Shown here: positions 5,038 through 52,134 of the stretch, in pieces | Position numbering within the stretch: the first letter of the stretch is position 1 | Layout of the letters: every line of letters starts with the position of its first letter | NCBI GenBank assembly: GCA_038874655.1 | Contig: JAVZBY010000002.1 | Coordinates: 57,335 to 121,334, forward strand | DNA: 64,000 bases | Origin: Candidatus Woesearchaeota archaeon | GTDB taxonomy: Archaea; Nanobdellota; Nanobdellia; Woesearchaeales; GW2011-AR15 | Direction of reading: 5' to 3' | Program-made: the position numbers and the translations under genes | Notes under the pieces: model-generated | Databases searched by the model: none | What the model saw: the letters and a program-made list of their open reading frames with translations, nothing else | Told to the model about the DNA's origin: nothing

Positions 5038-8000
5038 ATGTTTAAAAAGATAAAAAAAGAACTAAAAAAAGAGGAAAATAATAAAAATAAGGATAAAAAT
5101 AGTGGCATATTTAGATTCATGTATAAATTTAAAAAAATAGATTTTGCTAAACTTAACTTAAATATAGAGATTATTCTTTCAAATTTATTAATTATTTTAC
5201 TAATTGTTATTGCTATAATTTCTTTACTAATTTTAAGAGATTTTATAGGATATGTTCCTGGCTATAATCAAGCTCAAGGTGGTAGAATTACAGAATTAAA
5301 CATATATCAAGTTTATCCTGCAAGTATATGGAATGGTGTATATGGAATTGCATTACAAGCGCCTGTATTTAATACATCTTGGTTTATTTATGCAAATCCA
5401 GCAGGTATGTCTGAAATAAATCCTATTTATCCTTGTTTTGAGCCAGAGATTGAACATGAATTGTATGCAACCACTTTAAGCCCTTCACAAATAGTCTGGG
5501 AAAATATTACAGCAGCAACACCACAAATGTTAGATGATTATGTGGGTATTTCTTATAATGAATCCATGTCAGCAACGAAAAATTTCATTTATACAATGAC
5601 TGTTGATATTGGAACAAGAACAATTCCAAATGTTCCTACAATGTATTTAAGGCAATATGATAATCCAGGTAGCAGAGAATTTCCAGTAGGTATTTTACAA
5701 TATAATGGAAATATTATTATGGTTTCAAAAATAAACCCAAGTTATTTAACAGGCTATAGACCAGATAAAATCTTTAATTTTGAAATGATTGTTCCAGTTC
5801 CAATTAATACAACTAATTTGAAATATAATTTATATGTTGATCCTTTTGATTACTGTCCTCAAGGAGAGGCAGGAGAGAAAAAAATTCCAAGTAATATTCA
5901 AGGTTATGTTAGAGATAATCAAACACAGCAATTATTAGAAAATGCATTGGTTGCAATAGGAACAAGAATTTATATTACTGGGCCAGATGGAATTTACAAT
6001 ATTACTAACATACAACCAGGTAATTATTATATTGTAGCCATAAAAACAGGATTTAATAATTTTGTTTCTAATGTAACTATTCCAGAAAACACAACTATAG
6101 AATATAATATTAGTATGGAACTTTATCAAGAGCCATTAACAGGAACAGGCCCAGGAATTGGAACAGGGATTGGCCCTGGACAAGATGCACCAGGAACACA
6201 AACAAAATCAGGTGAAGGTCCTGGAATTGGTCCAGGTATTGGTCCTGGAATTGGGCCTTTTATTGAAAAACCACAAGAATTTGGAATTGATCACTGGCTT
6301 TCTTTAGATAAATTAAAAAAGAAAATCAAGATTGGATATTTCTTTACAGATAATTTATTAATATTTAGTTTCAGAAAAGAAACAGCAAAAATACAAATAA
6401 AAATTACAGGAAATGCATCAAAAATTTTAGAATTAAGTGATACACAAGCAACAATAGAACAAAATAAATATGCTAATATTACAATTAGAGGGTTTGGTTT
6501 AGAAAAAGGTGTTTATACTGGATTTTTAGAATTATCTGGAGATTTTAATGATACTTTGCCAATAGAAATAACAGTTACAGATGAAGAAAAATTACCTATT
6601 GAAGCAATGTTGATGCAATTAGATGTTTTAACAAAGCATCCATTAATGGGAAATAAGTTTAAATTTAGAGTGAATCTACAGAATTTATTAATAGAAGATT
6701 CTTATAATGTAAGATTAGACTATTATATTAGAGGGGTTGAAGCAGAAACTTCTAATTATTCAATGTATGTTGGCAATGATACTTTAACATTGTTTACTTC
6801 AGAATCAATAATAAAGGAAACATTTATTCCACCAGATTGGTCAAAAGGTGAATACTATTTAATTGTTGAAGCAAATTATTTAGATTTAAATGCAAGAACT
6901 TCTACAATTTTTGAAGTTTATGAACCTATCTATAAATATAAAGTATTAGGTAAATTAGAATTGTGGAAATTATTATTAGCTTTATTGATTTTAGCTTTGT
7001 TAATAATTATTATTTTATTGATTAGGCATAGAATTAATGCAACTAAAAGGTTCCATGCAAAAGTTGAATATAACCTATTGCCAAAAAAAGGTCCAAGATC
7101 TTTGTATGTAGGAAAAATTGCAGAAACAGAAATAGATACTTATTTTGATATGGATAAATTAACTGTTCATACTATTATAGCAGGTTCTACTGGAGGTGGT
7201 AAATCTATTTCAGCACAAGTGATTGTAGAAGAATGTCTATTAAAAGGAGTTGCTGTTGTTGTTTTTGATCCTACAGCACAATGGACAGGAATGCTTAGAA
7301 AATGTACAGATGAAAAAATGCTATCCTTTTACCCAAGATTCCATATGACTAAAAAAGATGCTCGTGCATTTAATGGAAACATCAGAGCAATAAAAAATCC
7401 TAGAGAAAAAATAGATTTAATGAAATATTGGAAACCTGGCGAAATCCAAGTATTCACTACAAGTACATTAGATCCAAAAGATATGGATATTTTTGTAGCT
7501 AATACAGTTAGAGAAGTATTCCATTCAAATTTACAAGAATACAGAGGATTAAGAATGTTAATGGTTTACGATGAAGTTCATAGATTATTGCCCAAATTTG
7601 GTGGCTCAGGTGAAGGTTTTGTCCAAATTGAAAGAGCATGTAGAGAATTTAGAAAATGGGGTATTGGTGTAATGCTAGTTTCACAAGTTTTAGCAGACTT
7701 CGTTGGACAAATTAAAGCTAACATTAACACAGAAATTCAAATGAAAACCAGGGATGAAGGTGATTTGCAAAGAATTGAAACAAAATACGGCAAAAGCTAC
7801 ATTCAAGAGTTAGTTAAAGCACCAGTAGGAAGTGGTATGGTGCAAAATTCTGATTGGAACAGAGGTAAACCCTATTATGTTACATTTAGACCAATTATGC
7901 ACAGTGTAGTAAGATTAACAGATCAAGAATTAGAACAATACAATAAATATAATGAAATTGTTGATGATTTATCATATCAATTAGAACAATTAGAACAAGA

Positions 8001-8697
8001 AGGAAAAGATGTTTTTGATTTAAAATTAGAATTAAAATTAGCATTAGACAAAATAAAATCAGGAAGCTTTAACATGGTTGAAATTTATTTAGAAGGGTTA
8101 AAACCAAGAATAGAAAAAATATGGCAAGAGCTTGGAAAAACACCTAAAAAAAGAGAAATTGAATTGGTTTCAGAAGAAGAGTTAAAATCAGCAATTGAAT
8201 CAGCAAAAAAAGAAAGTGAGCAATTAAAAACAACACAAACAAATTCAGGAACCGAGGAGAAAAAAGTCCTCGGTTTAAATGACGAAGTTCCTCCAAACAA
8301 AATATTGAAATTAGTAAATGGCACATTAGTTGTTAAATTAAAAGCATTGTATGATGAAATAAACGCATTAAAAGATGAAGAATTTAAACAACATGTAAAT
8401 GAAGACAAAAATGACTTTTCAGTGTGGATAAGAGATGCATTAAGCAATGACAAATGGGCTGATATTGCAGACACAATATTAACAAAAGAAGATTATTTAG
8501 CATTTTTAGAAGCATTAGATCAAGGAAAAGAAAAAACCTTCAAAGTAAAAACACCAAGACCAAAACCCTTTTCAAGTAAAAAAGATACAGGGACAAATAC
8601 ACAACAACAAAACACAAATCAAGAAAACACAAAACAACAAACAACAGAAAATCAATCTTCACAGAATTCGCAAACAAATCAACCAAATACAAATTAA
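5038..8697 (+). CDS. Membrane-embedded HerA/FtsK-superfamily (DUF87-like) P-loop ATPase with ~570-aa ectodomain and a C-terminal HVNxxKNDFxxW module
   Basis: TM1 is ILSNLLIILLIVIAIISLLIL. The ectodomain contains a CarboxypepD_reg-like segment (IQGYVRDNQTQQ..GNYYIVAIKTGF) and GPGIG repeats. TM2 is LWKLLLALLILALLIIIILLI (nt ~6961-7023). ATPase motifs are Walker A GSTGGGKS (7183..7206), FDPTAQW, Walker B MLMVYDEVH (7561..7581) and GIGVMLVSQ. The start codon lies 1 nt after the upstream stop. Confidence 0.8.
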   Translation: MFKKIKKELKKEENNKNKDKNSGIFRFMYKFKKIDFAKLNLNIEIILSNLLIILLIVIAIISLLILRDFIGYVPGYNQAQGGRITELNIYQVYPASIWNGVYGIALQAPVFNTSWFIYANPAGMSEINPIYPCFEPEIEHELYATTLSPSQIVWENITAATPQMLDDYVGISYNESMSATKNFIYTMTVDIGTRTIPNVPTMYLRQYDNPGSREFPVGILQYNGNIIMVSKINPSYLTGYRPDKIFNFEMIVPVPINTTNLKYNLYVDPFDYCPQGEAGEKKIPSNIQGYVRDNQTQQLLENALVAIGTRIYITGPDGIYNITNIQPGNYYIVAIKTGFNNFVSNVTIPENTTIEYNISMELYQEPLTGTGPGIGTGIGPGQDAPGTQTKSGEGPGIGPGIGPGIGPFIEKPQEFGIDHWLSLDKLKKKIKIGYFFTDNLLIFSFRKETAKIQIKITGNASKILELSDTQATIEQNKYANITIRGFGLEKGVYTGFLELSGDFNDTLPIEITVTDEEKLPIEAMLMQLDVLTKHPLMGNKFKFRVNLQNLLIEDSYNVRLDYYIRGVEAETSNYSMYVGNDTLTLFTSESIIKETFIPPDWSKGEYYLIVEANYLDLNARTSTIFEVYEPIYKYKVLGKLELWKLLLALLILALLIIIILLIRHRINATKRFHAKVEYNLLPKKGPRSLYVGKIAETEIDTYFDMDKLTVHTIIAGSTGGGKSISAQVIVEECLLKGVAVVVFDPTAQWTGMLRKCTDEKMLSFYPRFHMTKKDARAFNGNIRAIKNPREKIDLMKYWKPGEIQVFTTSTLDPKDMDIFVANTVREVFHSNLQEYRGLRMLMVYDEVHRLLPKFGGSGEGFVQIERACREFRKWGIGVMLVSQVLADFVGQIKANINTEIQMKTRDEGDLQRIETKYGKSYIQELVKAPVGSGMVQNSDWNRGKPYYVTFRPIMHSVVRLTDQELEQYNKYNEIVDDLSYQLEQLEQEGKDVFDLKLELKLALDKIKSGSFNMVEIYLEGLKPRIEKIWQELGKTPKKREIELVSEEELKSAIESAKKESEQLKTTQTNSGTEEKKVLGLNDEVPPNKILKLVNGTLVVKLKALYDEINALKDEEFKQHVNEDKNDFSVWIRDALSNDKWADIADTILTKEDYLAFLEALDQGKEKTFKVKTPRPKPFSSKKDTGTNTQQQNTNQENTKQQTTENQSSQNSQTNQPNTN
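6139..6258 (+). repeat. In-frame elastin-like GPGIG/GTGIG repeat linker in the ATPase ectodomain
   Basis: GTGPGIGTGIGPGQDAPGTQTKSGEGPGIGPGIGPGIGPF. The stretch is locally GC-rich within AT-rich DNA. Confidence 0.9.
8296..8520 (+). other. HVNxxKNDFxxWIxD module, copy 1 (C-terminus of the HerA-like ATPase)
   Basis: KILKLVNGTLVVKLKALYDEINALKDEEFKQHVNEDKNDFSVWIRDALSNDKWADIADTI. Confidence 0.85.
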
Positions 8698-8753
8698 TAA
8701 ATAAATACATAAAAAATTAATAAATCAATATTTAATAATATTATTAATAAAAA

Positions 8754-9650
8754 ATGGCACAAATTGAAACTAAAAGTTCAAATTACTTTTATCTAAAAGA
8801 TGGAAGAATAATAAAAACAATAGAAGAACTTCCAGATATTTTAGAAAATACTAGTGATCAAGTTTTTTATGAACATGTTAATCTTTATAAAAATGATTTT
8901 GCTAAATGGGTTTATGAAGTTTTTAATGAAAATGAACTATCAAAATTATTGGGCAATATAAAATCAAAAGAAGAAACAATTAGAACATTGAGAGCATATC
9001 TTAAAATAAAAGAGCAGAAAAAATTAAAAGAAGAAAAACAAAACAAAAATGAAAACATAAACGAAAATCTTTCTATTCATCAAACAAATGAAACTTTCAT
9101 AAAAAACACAGAAATAAAAATAGAAGACAAAAAAAAAGAAATAAATGAAACCTCACTAAAAAAAGAAATAAATGAAGAAAAAATAAATGAAACTCAAAAC
9201 CAATTTAATAATAATATAAAAAAAGAGATACAAAATAATAATGAAAAAATTTCTGATAAATTAGAAACTACTCTAAAAAGTCAAGAAACAATTTATAATG
9301 AAAATAATACTGAAAACCCAGATGATTTCTTTAAGAAAAATCCAATCATAATTGATAACATCATAGAAGCAAAAAAAGAAAACATAGTTTTAGAACCATT
9401 AACATTTATAGATTATGATAAAAATAATCCCAAAAAAACAATAGAGATTTTCAAAGACACATATGCAAAAGCATACCAAAGAATGAGTTTTCTTAGAAAG
9501 TCAGGATTTGATACTTCTTTAGTAGAAATAATGTTATTTAGGGTTTTGCCAAAAATCAAATTATATGAATCAACAAACGAAGAAAAAGATGCCTTAACAG
9601 TAAAAAGATTAATTAATGAAGTAATAGAAGAGTTAAATAATTTAAAATAA
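8754..9650 (+). CDS. Soluble protein with N-terminal HVNxxKNDFxxW module and Lys/Glu/Asn-rich middle
   Basis: FYLKDGRIIKTIEELPDILENTSDQVFYEHVNLYKNDFAKWVYEVFNENELSKLLGNIKSKEE lies at aa 11-83 (nt ~8784-9002). No TM segment is visible. Confidence 0.7.
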   Translation: MAQIETKSSNYFYLKDGRIIKTIEELPDILENTSDQVFYEHVNLYKNDFAKWVYEVFNENELSKLLGNIKSKEETIRTLRAYLKIKEQKKLKEEKQNKNENINENLSIHQTNETFIKNTEIKIEDKKKEINETSLKKEINEEKINETQNQFNNNIKKEIQNNNEKISDKLETTLKSQETIYNENNTENPDDFFKKNPIIIDNIIEAKKENIVLEPLTFIDYDKNNPKKTIEIFKDTYAKAYQRMSFLRKSGFDTSLVEIMLFRVLPKIKLYESTNEEKDALTVKRLINEVIEELNNLK

Positions 9651-9830: not shown

Positions 9831-10886
9831 ATGTTTTTATTTAAACCGAAAGTTCCAAGAATTGAAGATCAAGAAGAAAAAAAAGAGGAACCTCAACAAG
9901 AAGAAAAATCAGAACAAGTTAATAGTTCTGCTGCTGCTTTATCAGCTGAAATTATAAAATTAAAAGCACAGTTTGATCAATTCTCAGAATTAAGAAAAGT
10001 AATTAATGAGCAGATTGGAGAACTTAGAGGAATGATAATGGATACTAATAGATCAATGCAGGATGTTGAAATTAAAACAGTAAAAGCAGTTGATTTAGTT
10101 GAAGCAGTTCATCCAGATAAATTAATGGTAGAAGTTAGAAAACAAGATGCAAAAATAGAAGCACTAAAAGCAGGAATTGAGAGCAATGATTCAATAATGA
10201 AATCTCTTATGGAGCAATTAAAAGATATGAGACATGAAATTTCAACATTCAGAGGTGTTGAGCAAGTAGTAAAATTAAATGAAGAAGTAAAAAAGGAATT
10301 AATGGATATAAAAAAAATAGAAGCAACAGTTGAAAGACATTCTGATAAAATAGAAGGCATATTCATTGAAACACAAAAAAAATTCCAAGAATTTGATTCA
10401 TTAAATGATAAATTCAAAGAATTGCAAAAACAAGTTTCAAGTTTATTAGAAAATTCTGATCAAGTTAAAGTTAAATTAGCAACAACAGCATCTAAAAAAG
10501 AAGTAGAAGACTTAGTAAATAAGTTTAATGACTTTGAAAAACATGTTGGTAATATTATTGATTTATTAACCAAAAGAACAGATGATACATTAAAAGAAAT
10601 AGATGAAAGATTCAAAAAATTAGAAAATAGCATGAATGATGCATTTGAAAAAAGATTAAAAAGAGCTGAATTAATGAACTCATTAATAGAAAAAATAGAA
10701 AAAGATGCACCAAGAATAGCAAAGGAATTACAAATAAGTGAAAAACTAAAAGAAGTTGAAATAAAAAAGATTGAAAGCCAACCAAGTCAAGAAATTAAAG
10801 AAAATGTCCAAAATGTAGAATCAGAGAAAAAGGGATTTTTCGCAAAACTATTTGGTAAAAAAGAAGAAAAAAAAGATACTAAATAA
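9831..10886 (+). CDS. Coiled-coil protein, acidic N-terminus, function unknown
   Basis: The 351-aa ORF shows a heptad-like E/K/L/I pattern throughout and has AAAGAGGA upstream of the ATG. I recognise no enzymatic motif. Confidence 0.6.
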   Translation: MFLFKPKVPRIEDQEEKKEEPQQEEKSEQVNSSAAALSAEIIKLKAQFDQFSELRKVINEQIGELRGMIMDTNRSMQDVEIKTVKAVDLVEAVHPDKLMVEVRKQDAKIEALKAGIESNDSIMKSLMEQLKDMRHEISTFRGVEQVVKLNEEVKKELMDIKKIEATVERHSDKIEGIFIETQKKFQEFDSLNDKFKELQKQVSSLLENSDQVKVKLATTASKKEVEDLVNKFNDFEKHVGNIIDLLTKRTDDTLKEIDERFKKLENSMNDAFEKRLKRAELMNSLIEKIEKDAPRIAKELQISEKLKEVEIKKIESQPSQEIKENVQNVESEKKGFFAKLFGKKEEKKDTK

Positions 10887-12573: not shown

Positions 12574-13410
12574 ATGAATCAAAATTCAAACAATATTCAA
12601 ATTAATGAATTAAAACAGGGTAATGAAAAATTAATTCCAGAAAAATCAAATGAAAAAAATAAAGAAATTTATTTTCTAACTGGAATTCAAGGTTTTGATG
12701 ATTTAGTAGGAAAAGGATTTCCAAAAGGTTCACAAATTTTAGTTTCTGGCGGCCCTGGAACAATGAAAACAACATTTTGTTTACAAATTCTTACAAACCT
12801 ATCAAAAAAAGGACACAAATGTTTATATCTAACCTTTGAAGAGCCAGAAGAAAATCTGATAAGAAATGTTTCTTCATACGGATGGAACATTCAAGATCTT
12901 ATAAAGAACAAAAAACTAATGATAAAAAGTTTAGACCCATTTAAAATGTCTAGAAATGTTGAAACATTATTAGCACAAGCTCGTGGTGAATTACTAATTG
13001 AGATAAATGAAGCAAAAAATTTATTGCCAAATGACTTTGATCCAGAATTTGTAGTTATTGATTCATTGTCAGCAATTTCAGCAGGTTTTTTCGGAAAAAA
13101 AGAAGGTTATAGGGCATATATGTCACAAATTTTTGACACTTTTAGAAAAATGAAAATTAACACTTTCTTAATCACAGAGATTGAGCATAGCACAACAAGA
13201 TATAGTCAAAGTGGTGTTGAAGAGTTCTTAGCAGATGGAGTGATTGCATTATACAATTTTAGACAAGGGAATCAAAGAATAAATGCAATTGAAATAATAA
13301 AATTAAGAGGAGTAGAGCATAAAAAAAGAATCGTTCCTTTTAAAGCAATTGCAAATCAAGGAATTATAGTTTATCCATTAGAAGAATTATTTATACAAGA
13401 TTCACAATAA
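12574..13410 (+). CDS. Single-domain KaiC/RadA-like (RecA-superfamily) ATPase with a deviant Walker A
   Basis: GIQGFDDLVGKGFPKGSQILVSGGPGTMKTTFCLQ (P-loop at 12748..12771, with M where the GK[ST] glycine is expected). Also LYLTFEEP (catalytic Glu region), Walker B FVVIDSLS and IIKLRGVEH. AGAGG lies upstream of the ATG. Confidence 0.8.
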   Translation: MNQNSNNIQINELKQGNEKLIPEKSNEKNKEIYFLTGIQGFDDLVGKGFPKGSQILVSGGPGTMKTTFCLQILTNLSKKGHKCLYLTFEEPEENLIRNVSSYGWNIQDLIKNKKLMIKSLDPFKMSRNVETLLAQARGELLIEINEAKNLLPNDFDPEFVVIDSLSAISAGFFGKKEGYRAYMSQIFDTFRKMKINTFLITEIEHSTTRYSQSGVEEFLADGVIALYNFRQGNQRINAIEIIKLRGVEHKKRIVPFKAIANQGIIVYPLEELFIQDSQ

Positions 13411-13420
13411 AAAAATAAAA

Positions 13421-16400
13421 ATGAAAAAATACTTTAATCAAAATTATAGAAGATTTATCTTTTTATTATTATTTTTTATATTGATAAATATAGTCTCTTC
13501 TTTACCAGGAAACTTATGTTTTGAAAGTCCATGTATTTGTGGTTCAGCATGTAATTATGGATATGAAATAAATAATGGTTTTAATACAATAGATTCTTGT
13601 CAAGATGGACCAGAATACACATATGAGTATGTTCATGATATTAATATATCAAATCTAAACTTTTCTTATTTTAGAGGAGGAGATATTATAAAAATAGATG
13701 CTTATGTTGATTGTGATCCAGATGGAGATGAAATAACATTTGTTTATCATAATGGAAGTTCTTGGGTTCCTTTTTATAATGCAAATTGTAATGTTAATGG
13801 TAAAACACATATCATAACAACAAAAACTCTTGATAATTTTGAAGGTACTCACACAATTAGGATAACTTTGGCATACAATGGTATTTCAAATATGATATGT
13901 GCTTATAATCATGATTCCTTATACTCAGATACAGATGATATTTCTTTTTATGTTTATGATAAAAATAAAGATTTAGAAAAACCGAAAGTAAATATAATCT
14001 CTCCTGAAAATAGTATTACCTATTTCTATGAAAATAATTTAATAATCAACATAAGTGTTAATATTTCAGATAACATTAAAGTACAAAATGCTTCAGCATT
14101 AATTACATGGGGCTCTAAAAACATGACATTAGATTTAATTAATAGTTCAGGAATATTTAAAGCAAATTTTACAAATACAAGTGATTTTGCTAAATATAAT
14201 TTAACAATAATTGCTTATGACAATTCTTCAAATGTTAATAATACAGAATCTATTATCTTTTTTATTAATAAAACAAAAGATATAAAAATTATAACTCCTA
14301 CTGAAAATAAATTATACCCTTATAAAGACTTTAACATAGAATATATTATAGATAACAATGAAACAAATATTTATTATTCTTGGGTAGAATTAAATTCTGG
14401 TTTAGCAAGCTTTGATGGGAACAATAAAAAAATTTCAGTGGAAGAGCAATCAGATGACTCTGTTAATTGTTATGAGATAAATAATATTTCACAATCTTTT
14501 CAATTAGAAAAAGATACTTATTTATCACAGCTAGAAATAATGCTTAAAAAATCTGGAAACCCTGATAATGCAAAACTAGACATAAAATCAGATCTCAATA
14601 ATGAAGTTTTAGCAACAGGGATAATTGATTTAAATTCAGTTAATCAAGAATTTAATTGGGTTGTTATAGATTTAAACGAAAAAATAAAATTAAATAAAAG
14701 TACAAAATATTGGCTTTTTTTAAATACTACAGAATCAAATATAGATAGTGAAAATTACTATGAATGGATGCTTACATCTAATATTTATCAAAATGGTTCC
14801 TATATAAATAATGTTTCAAAAGATTTACTCTTTATAATATATGATTATTATAGCTTTAACTTGACAGCATCACCATTATCATCAGTAATGGATTTAATTG
14901 TATATGCCGAAACAGACCAAGGTCAATTAAGCTCAAACCTTATAACATTTTATCTTGATGATAATTCTCCAGTAATAAATGAATATAATTTTACACCGAA
15001 TAACTATAAAGATATTGATCCAGGAACCACAATAAATTTTACTGTTAATGCAACTGATAATTTAGAAATTTCTAATGTTTATCTTATTTATAGATTGAAT
15101 GATTTTAATTGGATAGAAAAGATAATGGATTATTCTAATGGTATTTATAAAACAAATTTGACATTAAATCAAACAAATTTAACATTCTTTTTTAGAGCTT
15201 TTGATACAAGTAATAATTTAGTTGAAACTTCTGACACAAAAATAGAGTGTGATTATGAAAATAATTGGTACATTGAACCTTCTAAAATTAATACAACCTC
15301 AGGTTTAATAGGAAAAAATAAATCCTTAGGTATGATAAATATTTACTTAGATTCAGATTATGATCTTGATATTAATGTTTCTTATATTTCTAATTTATCA
15401 ATTCTTTTAAATGGAAGTGATTCTCTCTTATTAAAAATACCTTCTAATAAAAATTCTTCTTTTGAACTAGTTATCTTAAGTTCAAACAAAACATCAAGAG
15501 ATAATGTAATCTTAAATTTTAACTCTTTAAATGATTCAAATCCTAAAAACAATCAGTTAAATTTTACATATGTTTCTTTACTTTCAGGACCATATCTTTT
15601 TTTAGAGATAATAGATTATTATCCAGTAGTTTATCAAGGTGAATATCTAGCAAATCTAAAAGCAAAGTTAATAAATCTAGGAAATGAAACAGCTTACAAT
15701 ATAACTATTAATTGGCTTTTACCTGAGGGAATTATTCCAAAAAGAAATTCAACACAAAAATTTTCAGAACTACAGCCAGGCGGAATTTCTTATATCGTAT
15801 CTCAAATTTCAGCTCAAGTTTCTGAAACAGCATCATTAGGTGTTAAAGAATTGAAAGTTATTGCAAATGCTTCTGATTCATTTGGAAATTATTCAGATGA
15901 GACAATAAAATACATAGAAATAAAATCAAATCAACAACCCATCATTAGTTATTCATCAGGACAAGGTTCAAAATCCGCAGACACTTATATTCCAACAATA
16001 ATTAAAAATGAAGACAATCTAAATATAAATTTAAATAAATTAGAAATTAAAAAATTAATCCCTTATACAACAAATATAACTTTCATAAATAATATCTCAA
16101 ACAAAGACTATATTGTAGAAATTGAAATAGAGGGATTGTTTAAGGCATATTATAACCTATCGGATTATTTATTTTATATTCCAAAAAATAAAGAAAAAAA
16201 AATAAATCTAACAATTAATCTACCTTCATACTATGAATTAGGCATAAAAAAATATAAACTAATAGTTAATCTTTATGACATAAATTCTCTTTATGATATA
16301 AATTATTCATATGATTTAATTAATACTAATGAAACTGATGAAATAAAAAACAAATTAAAAACATTTGACAAAAATAAATTTAGTTTATTAAAACAGATAA

Positions 16401-17863
16401 AAAAAGAATTCGACATAATTGTTTTAGATAACGATGAAAAGATATATTGTTTAAACAATGCATCTGAAAAAATAAATCTTTTAGATATAGATAAAACAGA
16501 TATTAATCAAAAATATCATCAAGCAGAAATAAATTTTAAAAATCAAGAATATGATTTAGTCTTAGAATTTTGTGATTATCTAAACAATTTTATTGACAAA
16601 TATGAAAAAACTAGAAATTCATTAGACTATTTAAAAAATGAGATTAGTCAATTAAAAAAAGAAGGATATAAAACAGAAGAAATTGAAAATTACTATTTAT
16701 TAATAAACGAAACTATCTATAAAGGTAATCTAGAAAAAGCAAATGAACTTTTAGAAAAAACAAATCTACTTAAATCTAATTTGGAACAACCTGCACAAAT
16801 AAAAATAACCAATTTTATTATTAAAAATAAAAATTCTTTGATAATAACAGCTATCTTTTTACCTATATTTATTTTATCACTAAGCAGATTAATTTATCTA
16901 ACAAAAACAGAAACTAAACTAAAAAACTTAGAAAAAGAAAAACAAAAATTATTAGAGTTATTAAAAAAAATGCAAGATTATTATTATGATAAACATTTTT
17001 TAAGTTCAGATTTATATAAAATATCAATCCATAAAATAAGATTTAGATTAGGTCAAATAGAAATTTCTTTGCTAAAATTAAGAAATAAATTAAAAAATAC
17101 TAATTTAACTAAAAATGATATTGAAAACTTGATAAAAGAGATTCAAGAAGACTACTATATCAAAAAAATTATCTCAGAGCAAACATATGAAGATTTAATA
17201 AAATATTATTATAAACAATTAAATGATTTAGAACAAAAAAATAAGTTAGAACAAAAAAATAACTTAATAAATAAAACAATAGAAAAAATAGATAATAAAA
17301 AGATTAGACTAAAATTAACTTCTACAAATAATTCTATTTTATATTCAAAAAAATCAAATAAATATGATAATAAAGAACAAATTAAAACAATACATCCAAG
17401 TAAATATGAAAAAAAAGAAGCATCCTTAAATAATAATACAAAAAAAAATGAAATAAACGAAAAAGAAGAAAAGAATCATTTTTTAAATAATACTTTATAT
17501 AATATCAATGAAACAACAAAGCAAAACTCAAAAAATAATAAATCAGAATTAAACTTAGATAATATAAAAGATAATATAGAAGTTAACATAGACTTTTATA
17601 AAAGATGCGAAAAAAATAAAGCTTTTATTTTAAATAATGGATTAAAATTATATTCAATTTTTGATTTATATGAAAAATTAGTTTTTAATTTAATTGATAA
17701 TCAAACTTTTGAATATCATGTAAATCAGTATAAAAATGATTTTTCAACTTGGATATCAGATGTGTATAACTATAATAAACTGGCTAAAGAAGTAAAAAAA
17801 ATTAATTCAAAAGAACAATTAATAGACTTTTTTAAAAAAATAATCGAATATAATAAAAAATAA
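13421..17863 (+). CDS. 1,480-aa surface protein: signal peptide, Cys-rich head, Ig-like repeats, TM, ~340-aa cytoplasmic coiled coil ending in an HVNxxKNDFxxW module
   Basis: FIFLLLFFILINIVSS signal. Head motif CFESPCICGSACNYGYE..DCDPDGDE. Ig-like repeats (LEKPKVNIISPENS.., NSPVINEYNFTPNN..). TM LIITAIFLPIFILSLSRLIYL near aa 1139. The C-terminal module is at nt ~17621-17860. Confidence 0.75.
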   Translation: MKKYFNQNYRRFIFLLLFFILINIVSSLPGNLCFESPCICGSACNYGYEINNGFNTIDSCQDGPEYTYEYVHDINISNLNFSYFRGGDIIKIDAYVDCDPDGDEITFVYHNGSSWVPFYNANCNVNGKTHIITTKTLDNFEGTHTIRITLAYNGISNMICAYNHDSLYSDTDDISFYVYDKNKDLEKPKVNIISPENSITYFYENNLIINISVNISDNIKVQNASALITWGSKNMTLDLINSSGIFKANFTNTSDFAKYNLTIIAYDNSSNVNNTESIIFFINKTKDIKIITPTENKLYPYKDFNIEYIIDNNETNIYYSWVELNSGLASFDGNNKKISVEEQSDDSVNCYEINNISQSFQLEKDTYLSQLEIMLKKSGNPDNAKLDIKSDLNNEVLATGIIDLNSVNQEFNWVVIDLNEKIKLNKSTKYWLFLNTTESNIDSENYYEWMLTSNIYQNGSYINNVSKDLLFIIYDYYSFNLTASPLSSVMDLIVYAETDQGQLSSNLITFYLDDNSPVINEYNFTPNNYKDIDPGTTINFTVNATDNLEISNVYLIYRLNDFNWIEKIMDYSNGIYKTNLTLNQTNLTFFFRAFDTSNNLVETSDTKIECDYENNWYIEPSKINTTSGLIGKNKSLGMINIYLDSDYDLDINVSYISNLSILLNGSDSLLLKIPSNKNSSFELVILSSNKTSRDNVILNFNSLNDSNPKNNQLNFTYVSLLSGPYLFLEIIDYYPVVYQGEYLANLKAKLINLGNETAYNITINWLLPEGIIPKRNSTQKFSELQPGGISYIVSQISAQVSETASLGVKELKVIANASDSFGNYSDETIKYIEIKSNQQPIISYSSGQGSKSADTYIPTIIKNEDNLNINLNKLEIKKLIPYTTNITFINNISNKDYIVEIEIEGLFKAYYNLSDYLFYIPKNKEKKINLTINLPSYYELGIKKYKLIVNLYDINSLYDINYSYDLINTNETDEIKNKLKTFDKNKFSLLKQIKKEFDIIVLDNDEKIYCLNNASEKINLLDIDKTDINQKYHQAEINFKNQEYDLVLEFCDYLNNFIDKYEKTRNSLDYLKNEISQLKKEGYKTEEIENYYLLINETIYKGNLEKANELLEKTNLLKSNLEQPAQIKITNFIIKNKNSLIITAIFLPIFILSLSRLIYLTKTETKLKNLEKEKQKLLELLKKMQDYYYDKHFLSSDLYKISIHKIRFRLGQIEISLLKLRNKLKNTNLTKNDIENLIKEIQEDYYIKKIISEQTYEDLIKYYYKQLNDLEQKNKLEQKNNLINKTIEKIDNKKIRLKLTSTNNSILYSKKSNKYDNKEQIKTIHPSKYEKKEASLNNNTKKNEINEKEEKNHFLNNTLYNINETTKQNSKNNKSELNLDNIKDNIEVNIDFYKRCEKNKAFILNNGLKLYSIFDLYEKLVFNLIDNQTFEYHVNQYKNDFSTWISDVYNYNKLAKEVKKINSKEQLIDFFKKIIEYNKK
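17621..17860 (+). other. HVNxxKNDFxxWIxD module, copy 3
   Basis: AFILNNGLKLYSIFDLYEKLVFNLIDNQTFEYHVNQYKNDFSTWISDVYNYNKLAKEVKKINSKEQ. Confidence 0.85.
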
Positions 17864-19646: not shown

Positions 19647-21464
19647 ATGAATAAAGCAAACACATTGAATAAAGAAAAAAAAATAATATTAGATACTTAT
19701 TTTTCATTGCTAGATAATTTTCCAAATCCAATTTGGCTTTCAGATAAAAATGCAAAATTTATTTTTTACAATAAATCTTGGCTTTCTTTTATAGGTGATT
19801 CAGGTAATAAAAATAAGTTCAAATCTTGGTTTAATCATATACACAATAAAGACAAAAAAAAGTTTTTAAAAATTTTCAGATCCAGTTTTAGTAAAAAAAA
19901 TTCATTTATGATAGATCTTAAATTAAGAAACAAAGATAAAACATATCACTTAGTAAGAACTTATGGTTCCCCGATTTATATTGACAATAAATTTTTAGGA
20001 TATATTGGTTATTGTTTTGACATTGATAAATTGAATAAAAACGAAAAAAGACTTATAGAGACAGAAACTAAATTTGAAACCATATTCAAAGAAATAAATG
20101 AAGCTATTTTATTATTGAATGAAAATAAAATCATTGATTGTAATGATAAAGCATTAGAATTATTTAGAGTTTCAAAAAATAGTTTCTTAAAAAAAGATAT
20201 TCTGAAATTTACACCATATAAACAACCAGACAATGCAATCTCTAAACTTAAATTTAAAAAATTGTTAAATCAAAAAATCTTTGAATGGCAATTTAAAAGA
20301 AAAGATTGGACACTATTTTTAGCTGAAGTTAAACTAACAAAAATAAAAATTATTGAAAATAATGGCTTAAAAGAATATTTTTTAATGATAATAAATGATA
20401 TCACAGAAAAAAGGAGAATTCAAGAAGAACTAATAAAAAAAGATCAATTCTTAATAAAACAAAATGAACTATTAAAACAATTAAGTCAATCCTATTCCAA
20501 AGATAGGATAATACAATTTTATAAAAAATCTTTAAAGAGAGTATTAAACTTTCTAAACATAGATAGAATTAGTTTATGGTTAATTAAAGACAAATATATA
20601 AACCTGATTTTGCAATATGATAAAATTAAAAATAAGTATTCTAGTGATAAAAAAATTGAAATAAAAAAATATCCTAAATACTTTAAATCTTTGTTTAAAT
20701 CTCAATTTATAGATGCTTCAGACGCAAGAAATGATAAAAGAACTAAAGAGTTTTTAAATTCTTATTTTAAAAAATACAAAATTTTCTCTACTTTAGATAT
20801 ACCTATAAGAATAAAAAATACAGTCATAGGTGTTTTGTGTTTAGAAAAAATAAATTACAAAAAAAATTGGACTCATTTAGAAAAAAACTTTGCAGTTATA
20901 TTAAGTGAATTTTTTTCAAATATAATAGAAGAACAAATATTGGAAAAAGAAGAAACTTTATTAAGCATACAAGAAAAAAAATATAAACTTATAGTAGAAA
21001 ATTTATTTGATGCTTTATTTATTCATGATAATAAGGGAAATATTTTAGATGTCAATAAAATGGCTTCTAATATTTCTGGCTACACCTATAAAGAATTATT
21101 AAGAAAAAACCTATTTGATCTTATTGTTGATAATAATAAGTTAAAAAAAAATTATCTCTATCTAGGGAATAATAAAAAAATTTCATATGAAACAAGATTA
21201 ATAAAAAAAAATAAAGAATCTATTTATGTAAATATTAGTTCAGTAATTATATCCAGAGATAAAAAAATTTCAATTCAGACTATTATAAGGGATATAAATG
21301 ATAATAAACTAAAAGAATTAAAATTAGAAGAAATTAATGCAAAATTAAAAGAAAAAATTGAGGAATTAGAAAAATTTGAAAAAATTGCCATAAATAGAGA
21401 ATTAAAAATGATAGAATTAAAGAATAAATTAGCAGAGTATGAACAAAATAATCAAAATAATTAA
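19647..21464 (+). CDS. PAS-PAS-GAF-PAS sensor protein with no transmitter domain; ends in the LEKFxKIAINRELKMIELK coiled coil
   Basis: PAS-like: NFPNPIWLSDKNAKFIFYNKSW and FKEINEAILLLNENKIIDCNDKA. GAF-like: LNIDRISLWLIK..STLDIPIRIKNTVIGVLCLE. PAS-like: ENLFDALFIHDNKGNILDVNKMA. No H-box or ATPase motifs are present. Confidence 0.75.
   Translation: MNKANTLNKEKKIILDTYFSLLDNFPNPIWLSDKNAKFIFYNKSWLSFIGDSGNKNKFKSWFNHIHNKDKKKFLKIFRSSFSKKNSFMIDLKLRNKDKTYHLVRTYGSPIYIDNKFLGYIGYCFDIDKLNKNEKRLIETETKFETIFKEINEAILLLNENKIIDCNDKALELFRVSKNSFLKKDILKFTPYKQPDNAISKLKFKKLLNQKIFEWQFKRKDWTLFLAEVKLTKIKIIENNGLKEYFLMIINDITEKRRIQEELIKKDQFLIKQNELLKQLSQSYSKDRIIQFYKKSLKRVLNFLNIDRISLWLIKDKYINLILQYDKIKNKYSSDKKIEIKKYPKYFKSLFKSQFIDASDARNDKRTKEFLNSYFKKYKIFSTLDIPIRIKNTVIGVLCLEKINYKKNWTHLEKNFAVILSEFFSNIIEEQILEKEETLLSIQEKKYKLIVENLFDALFIHDNKGNILDVNKMASNISGYTYKELLRKNLFDLIVDNNKLKKNYLYLGNNKKISYETRLIKKNKESIYVNISSVIISRDKKISIQTIIRDINDNKLKELKLEEINAKLKEKIEELEKFEKIAINRELKMIELKNKLAEYEQNNQNN
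21364..21423 (+). repeat. 60-nt near-identical dispersed repeat, copy A (encodes ELEKFEKIAINRELKMIELK)
   Basis: By my manual alignment about 54 of 60 nt are identical to 23086..23145. Confidence 0.8.
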
Positions 21465-21492
21465 AATAAAATAGATACATCAGATATTTAAA

Positions 21493-22347
21493 ATGAAAAA
21501 AATAAAAAATCTAAATAAATATAGAATTAGATTTAATCATTTTATTAAATCTAGTCAAGTTATTAAATCATATAAAATAAGAGATATAATTAAAATAATA
21601 AATATACTAATAGTTTTATTTCTTATTATATCCTGTACACAATTTTATTCAGAAAAATCAAAAATAAATGAAATAAAAAAAAGAGGAAAATTAATTATAG
21701 GAACAAGTCCACCTTATGGAATAATGGAATTTTATAAAAATAATGAGATAGTTGGTTTAGATATTGATATAGCAAAAGAAATAGCAAAATCCTTAAATGT
21801 GGAATTAGAAATAAAAATAATAGATTTTGATAAATTCTCTGAAGCTTTAAATAATGATGAAATTGATTTAATGATAGCTTCAATAACAATCACTTCAGAT
21901 AGACTCGATGAGATGGAACTTTCAATTCCTTACTTTAATACAGGTCAAGTTATTGTTTCAAAATATAATATAAATAGATATGAAGAATTAGAAAACAAAA
22001 CTATCTTAATAGAAGAAGATGGTTCAGATACGAAAAATCAGATTTTTAAGATTATAAAAAATTTTACACCAATTTACTATTCAGAAAGCCAAGGATTACC
22101 CTATGTTGAAAAAGCAATATTTGAATTAAATCAAAATAAGGTAGATGCATTTGTTATAGATTACATAGCAGCAATAGATATAGTAAAATATCATAAAGAC
22201 TTTCATATACTTGGTCCATTTACTAATGAATTTTATGGAATTGCATCAAAAAAAGGAAACAAAGATTTAATAAATCATGTTAATCAAATCATAAGAAATT
22301 TAAAATACACTGGTGAATTAGATAAGATTAAAGAAAAATGGATTTAG
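21493..22347 (+). CDS. Family-3 solute-binding protein (amino-acid-type SBP), membrane-tethered or secreted
   Basis: RGKLIIGTSPPYGIMEFYKNNEIVGLDIDIAKEIAKSLNVELEIKIIDFDKFSEALNNDEIDLMIASITITSDR..IPYFNTGQVIV. An N-terminal hydrophobic segment is present. Confidence 0.8.
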   Translation: MKKIKNLNKYRIRFNHFIKSSQVIKSYKIRDIIKIINILIVLFLIISCTQFYSEKSKINEIKKRGKLIIGTSPPYGIMEFYKNNEIVGLDIDIAKEIAKSLNVELEIKIIDFDKFSEALNNDEIDLMIASITITSDRLDEMELSIPYFNTGQVIVSKYNINRYEELENKTILIEEDGSDTKNQIFKIIKNFTPIYYSESQGLPYVEKAIFELNQNKVDAFVIDYIAAIDIVKYHKDFHILGPFTNEFYGIASKKGNKDLINHVNQIIRNLKYTGELDKIKEKWI

Positions 22348-22351
22348 AAAA

Positions 22352-23191
22352 ATGCTATCAATAAAAACAAAAATTTTTGCTGCAATTTTTGTAATTATTA
22401 TATTATTTAGTTCTATACTTTTTTATTTAGATTTTTATATTGATAAAAAAAATATGCAAGATTTTTTTTTAGAAAAAGTTAAATCAATTTCAAATAGTTT
22501 TAATGCTAATTTAGATAATAATATCTTATCAAATGAAGATGAATTATTAAATTTAAAAAATAGTTTTATTTATCATCATCCAGAAATAGTAGATTTAAAT
22601 TTAATTATGGATATACAAAATTTACCTTCCACCTTAAATAAAGGTTATACTTATAACATACTTGAAATCAACAAAAAGAAATATCTCAACTATACTTCCT
22701 TAATAATCATTTCAGGTCAAGAGAAGGCAGCTTTAAATATATTATTTGATTTAGATGATATTAGTTCTAGAATATTTAATGAATTAAAGATAGTTATATC
22801 TCTATATATCACTTTTTTGATATTAACTTTTTTTATTCTAAATTATATATATGATCTTATTTTACTTCAACCAATAAATAAATTATTAATTAATATTAAT
22901 GAATTTAGTCAAGGAAAAAGCATTAATCAATATGAATCTACGAATGATGAACTTGGTATTTTAACAAAAAAATTTTTTGAACTATATAAAATAATAATTG
23001 AGTCAAGAAAAAAAATTGAGCAACATGAAAAAGAACTTGAAAAAAAAGTTGAAGAAAAAACTAAAGAACTTCAAACAAAAATAAAAGAATTAGAAAAATT
23101 TCAAAAAATAATCATAAATAGAGAATTAAAAATGATAGAATTGAAAAAACAAATAGAAGAGTTAAAAAAAAATGAAAAAGAACAAAAATAA
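22352..23191 (+). CDS. Two-TM sensor-like protein with a HAMP domain and an LEKFxKIIINRELKMIELK coiled coil, no transmitter
   Basis: TM1 is IFAAIFVIIILFSSILFYL and TM2 is VISLYITFLILTFFILNYIY. HAMP-like: LLQPINKLLININEFSQGKS..NDELGILTKKFFELY. The protein ends shortly after the coiled coil. Confidence 0.7.
   Translation: MLSIKTKIFAAIFVIIILFSSILFYLDFYIDKKNMQDFFLEKVKSISNSFNANLDNNILSNEDELLNLKNSFIYHHPEIVDLNLIMDIQNLPSTLNKGYTYNILEINKKKYLNYTSLIIISGQEKAALNILFDLDDISSRIFNELKIVISLYITFLILTFFILNYIYDLILLQPINKLLININEFSQGKSINQYESTNDELGILTKKFFELYKIIIESRKKIEQHEKELEKKVEEKTKELQTKIKELEKFQKIIINRELKMIELKKQIEELKKNEKEQK
23086..23145 (+). repeat. 60-nt near-identical dispersed repeat, copy B (encodes ELEKFQKIIINRELKMIELK)
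   Basis: See 21364..21423. Confidence 0.8.
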
Positions 23192-26987: not shown

Positions 26988-27122
26988 AAAAAGAAAAAAC
27001 TTTGGAATGTATTTAGGTATATATCAGAGATATAACAAAATTTTATAGATATGCTTAAAATAATTATTATAATCTTATATTATTAGTTTTTTAATACTAT
27101 AGAATTTTAAGATGTGGTAAAA

Positions 27123-27524
27123 ATGATAAAAAAAGACTCTAAAAAATCAGAAAAAAAAATAATCCTCGTAGTTGATGATGAGCCTAATATTTTAGAATTA
27201 GAAAAAGCAATATTAGAGGTAGAAAATTATAATGTAATTACAGCACAATCAGGGCAAGAAGCATTAGATCTATTAAAAAAAATAAAACCAGATTTAATTT
27301 TATTAGATATGATGATGCCAAACATGTCTGGTAGAGAAGTTTGTGAAAGAATAAGAAAAGATCCAAAAACAAAAAAACTAAAAGTAATTTTTGTAACAGT
27401 AGCAAGGTTTTCAGAATTAGGTAAAGATCAATTAAAGGGGATGAATGTTTCTGATTATATAACAAAACCCTTTGAAAACTCTGATTTTATTAATAGAATA
27501 AAAAAAGTACTAGATGAAAAATAG
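27123..27524 (+). CDS. Stand-alone CheY-like response-regulator receiver
   Basis: ILVVDDEPNILE, LILLDMMMPNMSG (acceptor Asp), VIFVTV and YITKPF. The track starts at GTG 27114; I prefer the in-frame ATG at 27123. Confidence 0.9.
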   Translation: MIKKDSKKSEKKIILVVDDEPNILELEKAILEVENYNVITAQSGQEALDLLKKIKPDLILLDMMMPNMSGREVCERIRKDPKTKKLKVIFVTVARFSELGKDQLKGMNVSDYITKPFENSDFINRIKKVLDEK

Positions 27525-27659
27525 ATATAATATAAAAAATTATATGCATAAGGATATACATAATATACATATAGATAATATAAATCAGATGGAAATAAAA
27601 ATCAAATTATCTAATAAATAACCTAAAACTTTTAAATTTGTGAGAAAAAGGAAGATAAA

Positions 27660-28190
27660 ATGGTTGTAAATCTTAAAGAAGAGATAAAAAATTCAGATAT
27701 TAATCTTATTATAGGTTCAAAATCTAATTATATAGAAAATATTAATTTTATATTAAAAGAAATTAATTTTATTTCAAATAAGATAGGTTATATAACTTTA
27801 AACAAACCATATACAAAAATACTTTCAGATATACAAAAACTAAACTTAGATAAGAATAAATTTTTCTTTGTGGATGCAATCACAGCAACAGTTTCCTCAC
27901 CCCCTATTGTAGATAATTGTGTTTTTGTTAGCTCACCTAGTGCATTAACAGAAATAAGCGTTAGTTTTTCAACATTAGTTCAAGAGAAAAATGCTGATTT
28001 GATTTTTTTTGATACAATATCTACTTTAATTATTTATCAAGATATAGGGCAAGTTATAAAATTTGCACATAATATAATTACAAAAGCAAGAGTTTTAGGA
28101 AAAAAAGCAATATTCCTAACATTAAAAGAAGATTCAGAAACCTTAATTAAAGATTTAAATATGTTTGTAGATAAAATTATTGAACTTTAA
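27660..28190 (+). CDS. Putative RecA/KaiC-fold protein lacking a P-loop
   Basis: ADLIFFDTISTLIIY resembles a KaiC Walker-B strand and GKKAIFLTLKED resembles the following strand. No GxxxxGK[ST] occurs anywhere in the protein. This assignment is weak. Confidence 0.35.
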   Translation: MVVNLKEEIKNSDINLIIGSKSNYIENINFILKEINFISNKIGYITLNKPYTKILSDIQKLNLDKNKFFFVDAITATVSSPPIVDNCVFVSSPSALTEISVSFSTLVQEKNADLIFFDTISTLIIYQDIGQVIKFAHNIITKARVLGKKAIFLTLKEDSETLIKDLNMFVDKIIEL

Positions 28191-51060: not shown

Positions 51061-52134
51061 ATGGCTCTTTTTAAAAACTTATATTTGGATTTAAGTTATT
51101 TAAACCCTTTTTCATATTTTAAAAAAAACAATAAAAGTGATAAAATCCAATATAATGATGTATCCAAAAATCAGGTTTATTCTTCAGAAGCATATTCAAA
51201 TAATTTTAACAATCTAAAATTAGATGATAATATGTTAATTGATTCTCAAATCAATACAATCTCTAATGAAGAAAATGAAAAAACAGAAAACCTGGAATTG
51301 CCTGATGTTTCCAAAAAACTTCTTTCTGAAAAAAATGAAACAGAAAAAAAGCTTCCAAAAATAAATATTGTTATGCCTCCTCCTTTGATTAATAATTCTG
51401 ACTCACAAACACCAATTAAAAATTCGGATGAAAAAAATATTTTATTGCACAATAAATTCAGTATAGAATCATCACAGCAATTACAAAATTCAAGTTATTT
51501 AAATCAAATAGATAAAAAGAATGAAGAATCATTTATAGAAAATACATCTTTTTCACACTCTTATTTTAACGATATCTATCATCAATTAAATACAAATCAG
51601 ATAAACAAATCTTTGTCAAATAAAATTTATAATCCTAATTTATTAGAAGAAATGCAAACTTTTTGGAAACTTAAAAAAGAAGAGATAAATCAAATCAAAT
51701 TTAATTCAACAGTCAAAACAGAATTATTAAAAAAATTAACAGAATTACAAAAATTAGAAACAGAGTGGCAGAATCTTCAATTACAAAGCGAAAAAATCAA
51801 TGATTTACTCTTTTCAAAGGAGATTCTTATAGAAAATCAAGTAAAACAAATAAAAAAATTGTTTAAAAAACTACATTTAACTGTAAATGCACCATTAAAT
51901 CAAGAATTTATATTATCAAATGGTAATAGAATTTATAATCTTAATGAATTAATTAATATTCTAAAGAATATAGAGGATAATATCTTTTTTTATCATGTTA
52001 ATGACAATAAAAATGATTTTTATAACTGGATAAGAGACGTTTTTGGCTTTAATGAGTTAGCAGATCAAATAAAAAATATAAAAGATAAAAATCAAATGGC
52101 AGATATAATAGAAAAATGGGCTAATCATATTTAA
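51061..52134 (+). CDS. Soluble Asn/Ser/Lys-rich protein with a C-terminal HVNxxKNDFxxW module
   Basis: GGGAAAGGGGA lies upstream of the ATG. The C-terminus reads EFILSNGNRIYNLNELINILKNIEDNIFFYHVNDNKNDFYNWIRDVFGFNELADQIKNIKDKNQ (nt ~51904-52131). Confidence 0.7.
   Translation: MALFKNLYLDLSYLNPFSYFKKNNKSDKIQYNDVSKNQVYSSEAYSNNFNNLKLDDNMLIDSQINTISNEENEKTENLELPDVSKKLLSEKNETEKKLPKINIVMPPPLINNSDSQTPIKNSDEKNILLHNKFSIESSQQLQNSSYLNQIDKKNEESFIENTSFSHSYFNDIYHQLNTNQINKSLSNKIYNPNLLEEMQTFWKLKKEEINQIKFNSTVKTELLKKLTELQKLETEWQNLQLQSEKINDLLFSKEILIENQVKQIKKLFKKLHLTVNAPLNQEFILSNGNRIYNLNELINILKNIEDNIFFYHVNDNKNDFYNWIRDVFGFNELADQIKNIKDKNQMADIIEKWANHI

Follow-up and report, generated by a model that had tools for sequence, protein, structure and literature searches.

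A DUF5752/OrfY-type module at the termini of four proteins in a Woesearchaeota locus and its recurrence in glycogen-type operons: a possible pair-forming adaptor

Four proteins encoded in a single stretch of an archaeal genome carry the same small module at or near one of their ends, and the locus raises the question of what such a module does on proteins that align with one another nowhere else. The stretch, hereafter called the window, comprises 64,000 nucleotides (64 kb) of contig JAVZBY010000002.1 (positions 57,335 to 121,334; assembly GCA_038874655.1, Candidatus Woesearchaeota archaeon). Its four module-bearing open reading frames (ORFs) encode a membrane ATPase (ORF A), the product of the gene that follows it (ORF B), a large surface protein (ORF C) and a soluble protein (ORF D), with coordinates as listed in Table 1. 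An earlier note, made from the DNA letters alone, had placed the four copies at 8296-8520, 8784-9002, 17621-17860 and 51904-52131, and the in-frame translations of these positions match the peptides quoted there. Within the proteins these positions correspond to about aa 1087-1161 of ORF A, aa 11-83 of ORF B, the final 80 aa of ORF C and the final 76 aa of ORF D. The note had also suggested a docking or regulatory module that connects the ATPase with the surface proteins. In the analysis described here the module was assigned to the DUF5752/OrfY family and was found in a glycogen-type operon of related archaea. It is tentatively read, from sequence comparison, as a pair-forming adaptor or regulatory module.

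A strict motif expression applied to all six frames of the window recovered the four copies and no others. A census with a 20-sequence profile hidden Markov model (HMM), run with --max over all stop-to-stop segments and with E-values up to 10, also returned exactly four, the number given in the earlier note: copy 4 in ORF D (E = 6.6e-31), copy 2 in ORF B (1.6e-28), copy 3 in ORF C (8.1e-26) and copy 1 in ORF A (1.2e-24). The best match beyond these had E = 0.62, and no further degenerate copies were found in the window at these settings. Because of this gap in E-values the copy count is exact and far beyond chance, and an artefact of chance or of low-complexity sequence was ruled out. When the four copies were aligned with MAFFT (~80 columns), copies 2-4 showed 26-33% identity to copy 1, the mutual identity among all four being 26-41%, and L, G, L, F, H-V-N, K-N-D-F, W, I and K were invariant. 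Pairwise BLASTP of the four host proteins aligned the module region alone (E 2e-11 to 4e-4), which, with the invariant core residues, bears out the earlier description of a discrete and strongly constrained domain. Each copy has its own orthologues in other loci, the nearest relatives of copy 1 being the modules of ORF A orthologues. Because each copy has such orthologues and the mutual identity is so low, the four copies are, as judged from their sequences, ancient paralogues and not the product of recent local spread.

The module belongs to a catalogued family. Pfam PF19027 (DUF5752), which the earlier note had rightly named as a possibility, was the top match of all four isolated modules, with scores of 31.5 (D), 23.9 (B), 20.5 (C) and 13.2 (A) bits against a cut-off of 23. 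The D and B copies pass this cut-off, and the A and C copies are assigned to the family because a common profile ties them to B and D. Each window copy covers either positions ~51-93 or positions ~125-190 of the 208-column DUF5752 profile, never both, and a protein with two modules in tandem (P0021; related proteins and loci are designated by P and L numbers) covers positions 13-190 in one stretch. Because the copies match two separate parts of a profile that the tandem protein spans, DUF5752 is a tandem duplication of the module, of which the window copies are single repeats. A profile built from the four copies matches PDB entry 4CSO, OrfY of Thermoproteus tenax, with E 1.7e-6, in two stretches around its two NDF..W motifs. 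The 20-sequence profile in turn matches repeat 2 of P0197, a full-length OrfY homologue (match to 4CSO, E 4.8e-28), with an hhalign probability of 96.4% and E 1.3e-9 over 72 columns.

Sequence homology and the H...NDF..W signature thus tie the window copies to OrfY, and the two differ in build. OrfY is a stand-alone protein of ~210 amino acids (aa) that contains two repeats and has a longer loop ahead of NDF, whereas the window copies are single ~75-aa repeats, one per protein, fused to other regions at the termini of large unrelated proteins; the two-repeat stand-alone architecture was not found in the window. A GT4 glycosyltransferase neighbourhood is shared by OrfY and the relatives of the module, T. 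tenax orfY being reportedly co-encoded with the GT4 enzyme TreT. The window, unlike these relatives, has no glycosyltransferase or GH57 gene near its module copies, and neither GH57 nor GT4 was found among its ORFs of at least 100 aa. The function of DUF5752 is uncharacterised, so the module does not map to a well-characterised domain with an unrelated role. A literature search found no publication on DUF5752, on OrfY with T. tenax or trehalose, or on 4CSO, and OrfY is unmentioned in the paper on T. tenax trehalose that was consulted.

The structure of copy 4 was predicted with AlphaFold at a predicted local distance difference test score (pLDDT) of 95.3 and a predicted template modelling score (pTM) of 0.84. 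The predicted fold, taken as that of an autonomously folding domain, consists of a beta-hairpin, two helices, a tight loop and beta-bridge bearing H-V-N-x-x-K-N, and three further helices. With this single-module model, Foldseek found no neighbour in the PDB (best E 2.7) or in BFVD (best E 1.7). With the model of a tandem-module protein (P0023, pTM 0.68), the only significant matches in the PDB were 4cso_B and 4cso_D (E 3.5e-4, probability 1.00), the two being chains of the OrfY entry. The pTM of the tandem model was judged to exceed the value usual for two freely tethered 80-aa domains. The module core is mildly acidic, with a median net charge of -2 and a median isoelectric point of 5.9 (n=419); for the window copies the net charge is -6 (A), -2 (B), +1 (C) and -4 (D).

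When 1.84 billion representative proteins were searched exhaustively with the HMM, 4,597 clusters (formed at 50% identity) matched at E <= 1e-3, and 2,540 did so at E <= 1e-10. The module occurs once in 123 of 197 collected proteins, twice in 71 and three times in 3. It is terminal in 104 of the 109 proteins of at least 200 aa. In a survey of 104 long proteins the partners were HerA/DUF87 (8), KaiC-like ATPases (5), FtsK (5), CarboxypepD_reg (5), FlaC-type coiled coils (4) and TPR (2). Among individual fusions are KaiC-like ATPases in which two or three modules precede the ATPase part, and one HerA/FtsK protein that likewise bears modules. Many of the small members have the module at the N-terminus and are tail-anchored by a transmembrane segment at the C-terminus. 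In the tandem proteins the nearest neighbour of a first module was another first module in 39/64 cases, and that of a second module another second in 44/64. Deep "first" and "second" subtypes were considered and rejected, as 424 modules did not separate cleanly into such types under average-linkage clustering.

The four host proteins of the window show the same preference for termini, and in them the module is placed after low-complexity or coiled-coil stretches. ORF A consists, in order, of an N-terminal transmembrane segment, an ectodomain with a CarboxypepD_reg-like part and a Gly-Pro-rich stalk, a second transmembrane segment (aa 644-662, with a positive-inside flank), a HerA/FtsK-type P-loop ATPase, a coiled coil and the module. 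ORF B begins with the module, which is followed by an Asn/Lys/Glu-rich linker and a conserved C-terminal helical domain (aa ~229-297). ORF C has a signal or transmembrane segment, an ectodomain of ~1100 aa rich in N-glycosylation sequons, a transmembrane segment (aa 1140-1158) and a cytoplasmic coiled-coil tail of ~320 aa that ends with the module. No transmembrane segment was predicted in ORFs B and D. The transmembrane positions in A and C, together with sequons that are denser in the parts predicted as ectodomain than in those predicted as cytoplasmic, place the module on the cytoplasmic side by topology prediction, in agreement with the earlier note.

The gene order of the window is partly conserved elsewhere, and the module is not fixed to one gene within it. 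Locus L041, from a Woesearchaeota metagenome-assembled genome, is collinear with the window: it has orthologues of ORF A (66% identity), ORF B and the 351-aa coiled-coil protein encoded after B, then a gene for a module joined to a KaiC-like ATPase, an orthologue of the window's KaiC (65%) and the beginning of a C-like gene. A tblastn search of the window found no trace of the module-KaiC gene that in L041 lies between the orthologues of the coiled-coil protein and KaiC. Genes for A-like ATPases and for this type of coiled-coil protein co-occur in four loci, in three of them side by side (L041, L053, L080) and in L028 two genes apart. Seven ORF A orthologues carry two modules in cis (P0020, P0043, P0048, P0055, P0058, P0085 and that of L053). 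In L041, as in the window, A bears a single module and the adjacent B contributes a second; the A-like ATPases of L028 and L080 lack the module and have small module genes beside them. In L028, moreover, the C-terminal domain of ORF B is encoded as a separate, module-less ORF of 160 aa after the A-like gene. Locus L002 reverses the arrangement of the window: there the N-terminal module is on a KaiC-like ATPase (55% identical to that of the window), and the next gene encodes a module-less C-like surface protein of 1386 aa with the same layout (33% identity over the N-terminal 500 aa), whereas here the module is on the ORF C surface protein. The surroundings of ORF D are likewise conserved, L003 being collinear with ORF D and its neighbours at 50001-50933 (minus strand), 52654, 53556 and 54374; the ORF D relatives P0017 and P0021 have two modules. 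These comparisons indicate that the module moves between the products of neighbouring genes.

The wider genomic context was surveyed by scanning one genome per species, which gave 220 confirmed matches, and the best 80 loci were analysed; neighbouring ORFs were clustered with the module masked, and cluster representatives were scanned with Pfam and NCBIfam. Almost all of the 80 loci come from DPANN-type metagenome-assembled genomes (Woesearchaeota, Nanoarchaeia, Altiarchaeales). The set also holds many records labelled "uncultured Methanosarcinales", a few from Chloroflexi/Dehalococcoidia and one from Acidobacteriota. The "uncultured Methanosarcinales archaeon" records (L003, L015, L024, L028 and ~20 more) contain the same operon and close homologues of window proteins, and their taxonomic labels may be unreliable. 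GH57 was found near the module in 54/80 loci and a GT4/GT5 glycogen-synthase-like glycosyltransferase in 52/80, followed by PAS (25/80), amylo-1,6-glucosidase (GDE_C; 20/80), GalT-like (14/80), archaeal MinD-like ATPase (9/80) and GH15 (8/80). The canonical order is a PAS gene, GT4, GH57, a gene for a soluble module protein of 90-140 aa and a further module gene, often with a C-terminal transmembrane segment. In 41 loci a module gene lies directly 3' of GH57, at a median distance of 17 nt, and four loci have GH57-module fusions (L012, L018, L025, L066). Adjacent co-directional module genes occur in 42 of the 80 loci (52 pairs, median gap 4 nt).

Several further features of this operon were observed. 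It has one to three small module genes, the last often tail-anchored (for example L076:2426-6564 and L029:3245-11146), and it frequently continues either with a second GT4, a GalT-like gene and an amylo-1,6-glucosidase or, in 9 loci, with the MinD-like ATPase. The C-terminal part of its PAS protein resembles a winged helix by eye and is a probable winged helix-turn-helix. An N-terminal tail very rich in Lys/Arg is frequent in the first small module protein that follows GH57 (P0001, P0006, P0007, L036:5610-5969, L076:5274-5642), its mean net charge being +10 over ~42 aa (n=15). The MinD-like ATPase is encoded near such basic-tailed module genes in several loci, an arrangement that recalls the basic N-terminal peptides of ParA/MinD partners.

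The earlier docking proposal stands in part, and docking as such is plausible. Linkage to ATPases does recur, in HerA/FtsK and KaiC fusions, in the orthologues of ORF A that keep the module and in L002. The module is not, however, tied specifically to systems of ATPase and surface protein, its dominant context in the sampled genomes being the glycogen-type operon, in which it takes the form of small stand-alone or tail-anchored proteins. Its distribution across genomes is non-random, and is not the scatter that would speak against any such link.

The reading tentatively preferred here is that the working unit is a pair of modules that connects their carriers. It is suggested because two non-equivalent modules recur in cis or in adjacent genes, because the position of a module in a tandem is conserved among nearest neighbours, because the module swaps between neighbouring gene products, because it is terminal and in the window follows low-complexity or coiled-coil stretches, and because membrane-anchored carriers are frequent. 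A module at a protein terminus would associate with another, non-identical copy, either in cis, as in OrfY and many tandem proteins, or in trans, between proteins encoded side by side, of which ATPase A and its partner B are an example. Such association would gather the carriers at the cytoplasmic face of the membrane: HerA/FtsK-type membrane ATPases, KaiC-like ATPases, the cytoplasmic tails of surface proteins, GH57 enzymes and tail-anchored proteins. Both the mutual binding of modules and its purpose, whether recruitment or ligand-gated regulation, are what we infer from the sequences. A more specific form of this proposal, and a distinctly improbable one, is that non-identical OrfY-type modules pair specifically and couple GT4-GH57 glucan storage to KaiC- and MinD-like ATPases and to membrane machines, as a cytoplasmic network for interaction or signalling, so far unrecognised, in DPANN cells. 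Pairing in such a network would possibly be metabolite-gated, and the membrane machines (a HerA/FtsK-type ATPase with a large ectodomain, giant surface proteins) may mediate contact with the host cell.

Several observations weigh against pairing as the working principle. The AlphaFold model of P0023 superimposes on 4CSO with a global TM-score of only 0.36 and a root-mean-square deviation of 18 Å, and the model's own alignment covered repeat 2 only; the module fold predicted for P0023 may be common to 4CSO, and the arrangement between modules is not reproduced by the model. Positional conservation in tandem proteins is also expected if the host proteins themselves are orthologous. Many members are module-only proteins of ~90 aa, which is unusual for a pure docking domain, and two of the GH57-module fusion loci (L012 and L066, those with usable flanks) have no second module gene nearby. 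The polar residues conserved across the family (H, N, K/R, N, D), in the loop between helices 2 and 3, would also fit a ligand-binding site. Finally, selection of the 80 loci relied on a single peptide pattern and on resemblance to copy 4, so that the sample is biased and its frequencies hold for the sample only.

The polar residues lead to the main rival proposal, rather unlikely on present evidence, in which the module is a ligand-sensing regulatory element that binds a metabolite or second messenger and allosterically controls the attached protein. The near-invariant H..N..[K/R]-N-D residues, in the helix 2-3 loop and beta-bridge beside a conserved F and W, would suit such a site, as would the occurrence of the module alone or at the ends of unrelated folds (GH57, HerA/FtsK, KaiC-like) and its tight embedding in a metabolic operon of GT4-GH57 with GDE, GalT-like and GH15 genes. 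KaiC-like ATPases are, moreover, said to be signalling hubs in archaea. Candidate ligands may include a sugar nucleotide, glucose-1-phosphate, an alpha-glucan-derived oligosaccharide or a cyclic nucleotide, perhaps bound at the interface of a module pair by analogy with ACT domains or with PilZ and MshEN. ACT domains are ~70-80 aa long, occur stand-alone, in tandem or at enzyme termini, usually function as pairs and are often linked to metabolic operons, a logic that the module resembles by analogy only: the ACT fold is beta-alpha-beta-beta-alpha-beta, whereas the module is predicted to have a beta-hairpin and five helices, and neither sequence nor fold matches. PilZ and MshEN are small cytoplasmic second-messenger receptors with a short invariant polar motif, found alone or on polysaccharide synthases and secretion-type ATPases; the likeness is again one of analogy, no homology to the DUF5752-type module was found, and nothing here points to a cyclic-dinucleotide system or to any ligand. 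The module is similar to no known ligand-binding fold. OrfY, furthermore, retains only H and NDF..W, which could be a helix N-cap and core residues, and ligand sensing offers no obvious role for copies on the ORF C tail or on tail-anchored proteins, where no output domain is visible. Were the module instead to bind the alpha-glucan (glycogen) polymer made by GT4 and GH57, with tail-anchored copies tethering granules to the membrane, its frequent place beside these genes, directly after GH57 in 41 loci, and the four GH57 fusions would be accounted for; aromatic (F, W) and polar (H, N, D) residues such as those it conserves are also typical of sugar binding. In the window, however, neither GH57 nor GT4 was found among the ORFs of at least 100 aa, and yet the module occurs four times, on an ATPase and its partner, on the tail of a surface protein and on a coiled-coil protein. 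The small, mostly helical fold has no match to beta-sandwich starch-binding modules, and the KaiC and HerA ATPase fusions would be left unexplained, so that glucan binding is very unlikely.

A role as the DNA-binding domain of a transcription factor is the least probable of the readings weighed, and a highly doubtful one. It follows the name that the depositors of 4CSO gave the molecule, "ORFY protein, transcription factor", for which the literature search found no supporting publication. Small operon-encoded proteins are often autoregulators, and the very basic N-terminal tails of the small proteins after GH57 would be compatible with DNA binding. The module core itself is acidic on average and therefore does not fit a DNA-binding domain, no helix-turn-helix or other DNA-binding fold was found among the Foldseek matches of either model, and many copies are membrane-tethered, as tail-anchored proteins or as tails of membrane proteins. 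The canonical operon, moreover, already has a PAS protein with a winged-helix-like C-terminal part. A related comparison is with FtsK gamma, a winged-helix DNA-recognition domain, which ORF A recalls in its order of membrane anchor, FtsK/HerA-superfamily P-loop ATPase, linker and small C-terminal domain. Unlike FtsK gamma, the module is acidic (net charge -6 in A), lacks any fold match to winged-helix domains and is also found on many proteins that are not ATPases.

Table 1. Module copies, host proteins and other features of the window
Feature	Coordinates	Strand	Description
ORF A	5038..8697	+	1219 aa; Pfam, NCBIfam and PADLOC HerA matches; transmembrane prediction
Gly-Pro-rich segment of ORF A	6140-6260		aa ~368-408, ectodomain
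Antisense ORF	8085-8474	-	129 aa, GTG start
Module copy 1	8281..8535	+	ORF A near C-terminus, aa ~1082-1166; followed by a 58-aa Gln/Asn/Thr-rich low-complexity tail
ORF B	8754..9650	+	298 aa; start 56 nt past ORF A
Module copy 2	8772..9017	+	ORF B N-terminus, aa ~7-88
Coiled-coil protein	9831..10886	+	351 aa; conserved beside A-like ATPases
KaiC-like (RecA-superfamily) ATPase	12574..13410	+	Directly upstream of ORF C; Pfam KaiC E 1.1e-49, NCBIfam KaiC/ArlH-like
ORF C	13421..17863	+	1480 aa, surface protein
Module copy 3	17612..17860	+	ORF C extreme C-terminus, predicted cytoplasmic tail
Sensory cluster	19647-28190		Several genes
Giant protein	30470-44860		4796 aa
First ~620-aa protein	44882-46744		Otherwise unannotated
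917-aa protein	46741-49494		917 aa
ORF D	51061..52134	+	357 aa, soluble; N-terminal half of low complexity, then a coiled coil and the module at the C-terminus
Module copy 4	51892..52131	+	ORF D extreme C-terminus
First ~260-aa protein	52654-53451		Secreted or membrane protein downstream of ORF D
Second ~260-aa protein	53556-54329		Secreted or membrane protein downstream of ORF D
Second ~620-aa protein	55309-57216	-	Otherwise unannotated

The assignment of ORF A rests on Pfam matches to DUF87 (E 4.6e-12, 47 bits, cut-off 23.2) and HerA_C (26.2 bits, cut-off 22) and on the PADLOC HerA profile (E 7.7e-15), which identify it as a P-loop ATPase of the HerA/FtsK superfamily; it also has a Pfam match to CarboxypepD_reg. 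It is not a canonical HerA, CedD or TraD, because the NCBIfam equivalog cut-offs were not reached. A known defence system was considered and rejected, PADLOC having returned only generic HerA or coiled-coil matches. The Gly-Pro-rich segment of the ectodomain contains repeats (TGTGPGIGTGIGPG...GPGIGPGIGPGIGP) that are kept in the orthologues P0020 and P0022 and may form an elastic stalk; in P0022 the CarboxypepD_reg-like domain is expanded to ~10 copies. An ORF antisense to the module-coding part of ORF A is probably spurious, in AT-rich sequence. The 351-aa coiled-coil protein had no Pfam or PDB match and only weak coiled-coil matches to SMC/Rad50. The window as a whole has 23.7% G+C, and no tRNA gene was found in it.

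Other genes of the window were noted in passing. Downstream of ORF D are two paralogous proteins of ~260 aa (E 1e-25 mutually), which cluster by similarity with the N-terminal ectodomain of A-like ATPases, as in the match to L080 1383-5624; members of this family adjoin module genes in L003, L009 and L028. The giant protein has CARDB and Big_13 domains, and over its last ~180 aa it matches the end of the 917-aa protein with 43% identity; two more segments are similar, which suggests a common C-terminal anchoring or sorting region. Two proteins of ~620 aa have in common a 123-aa segment (43% identity, E 4e-23). The sensory cluster encodes a PAS/GAF protein, a periplasmic SBP_bac_3 protein, a 1271-aa SBP-containing histidine kinase, a stand-alone receiver and a short KaiC/DUF835-like protein, a homologue of which is encoded beside module and KaiC genes in L073.

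The module is not categorically new, because the DUF5752/OrfY family is catalogued and has a solved structure. What appear to be previously undescribed are the view of this family in terms of a unit module, the grammar by which the module is arranged in DPANN glycogen operons, and its fusion to or adjacency with three classes of ATPase (HerA/FtsK, KaiC-like and MinD-like). The evolutionary unit of DUF5752 is a module of ~75 aa and not the 208-column Pfam domain, and its grammar in DPANN-type archaea is very regular, joining a glycogen-type operon and three P-loop ATPase classes. To our knowledge the cell biology of DPANN archaea is almost wholly unexplored, notably the carbon storage and surface machinery of these tiny symbionts. 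A module that would link storage and surface functions offers testable hypotheses of protein-protein and protein-ligand interaction, and a handle for annotating thousands of proteins now labelled "hypothetical".

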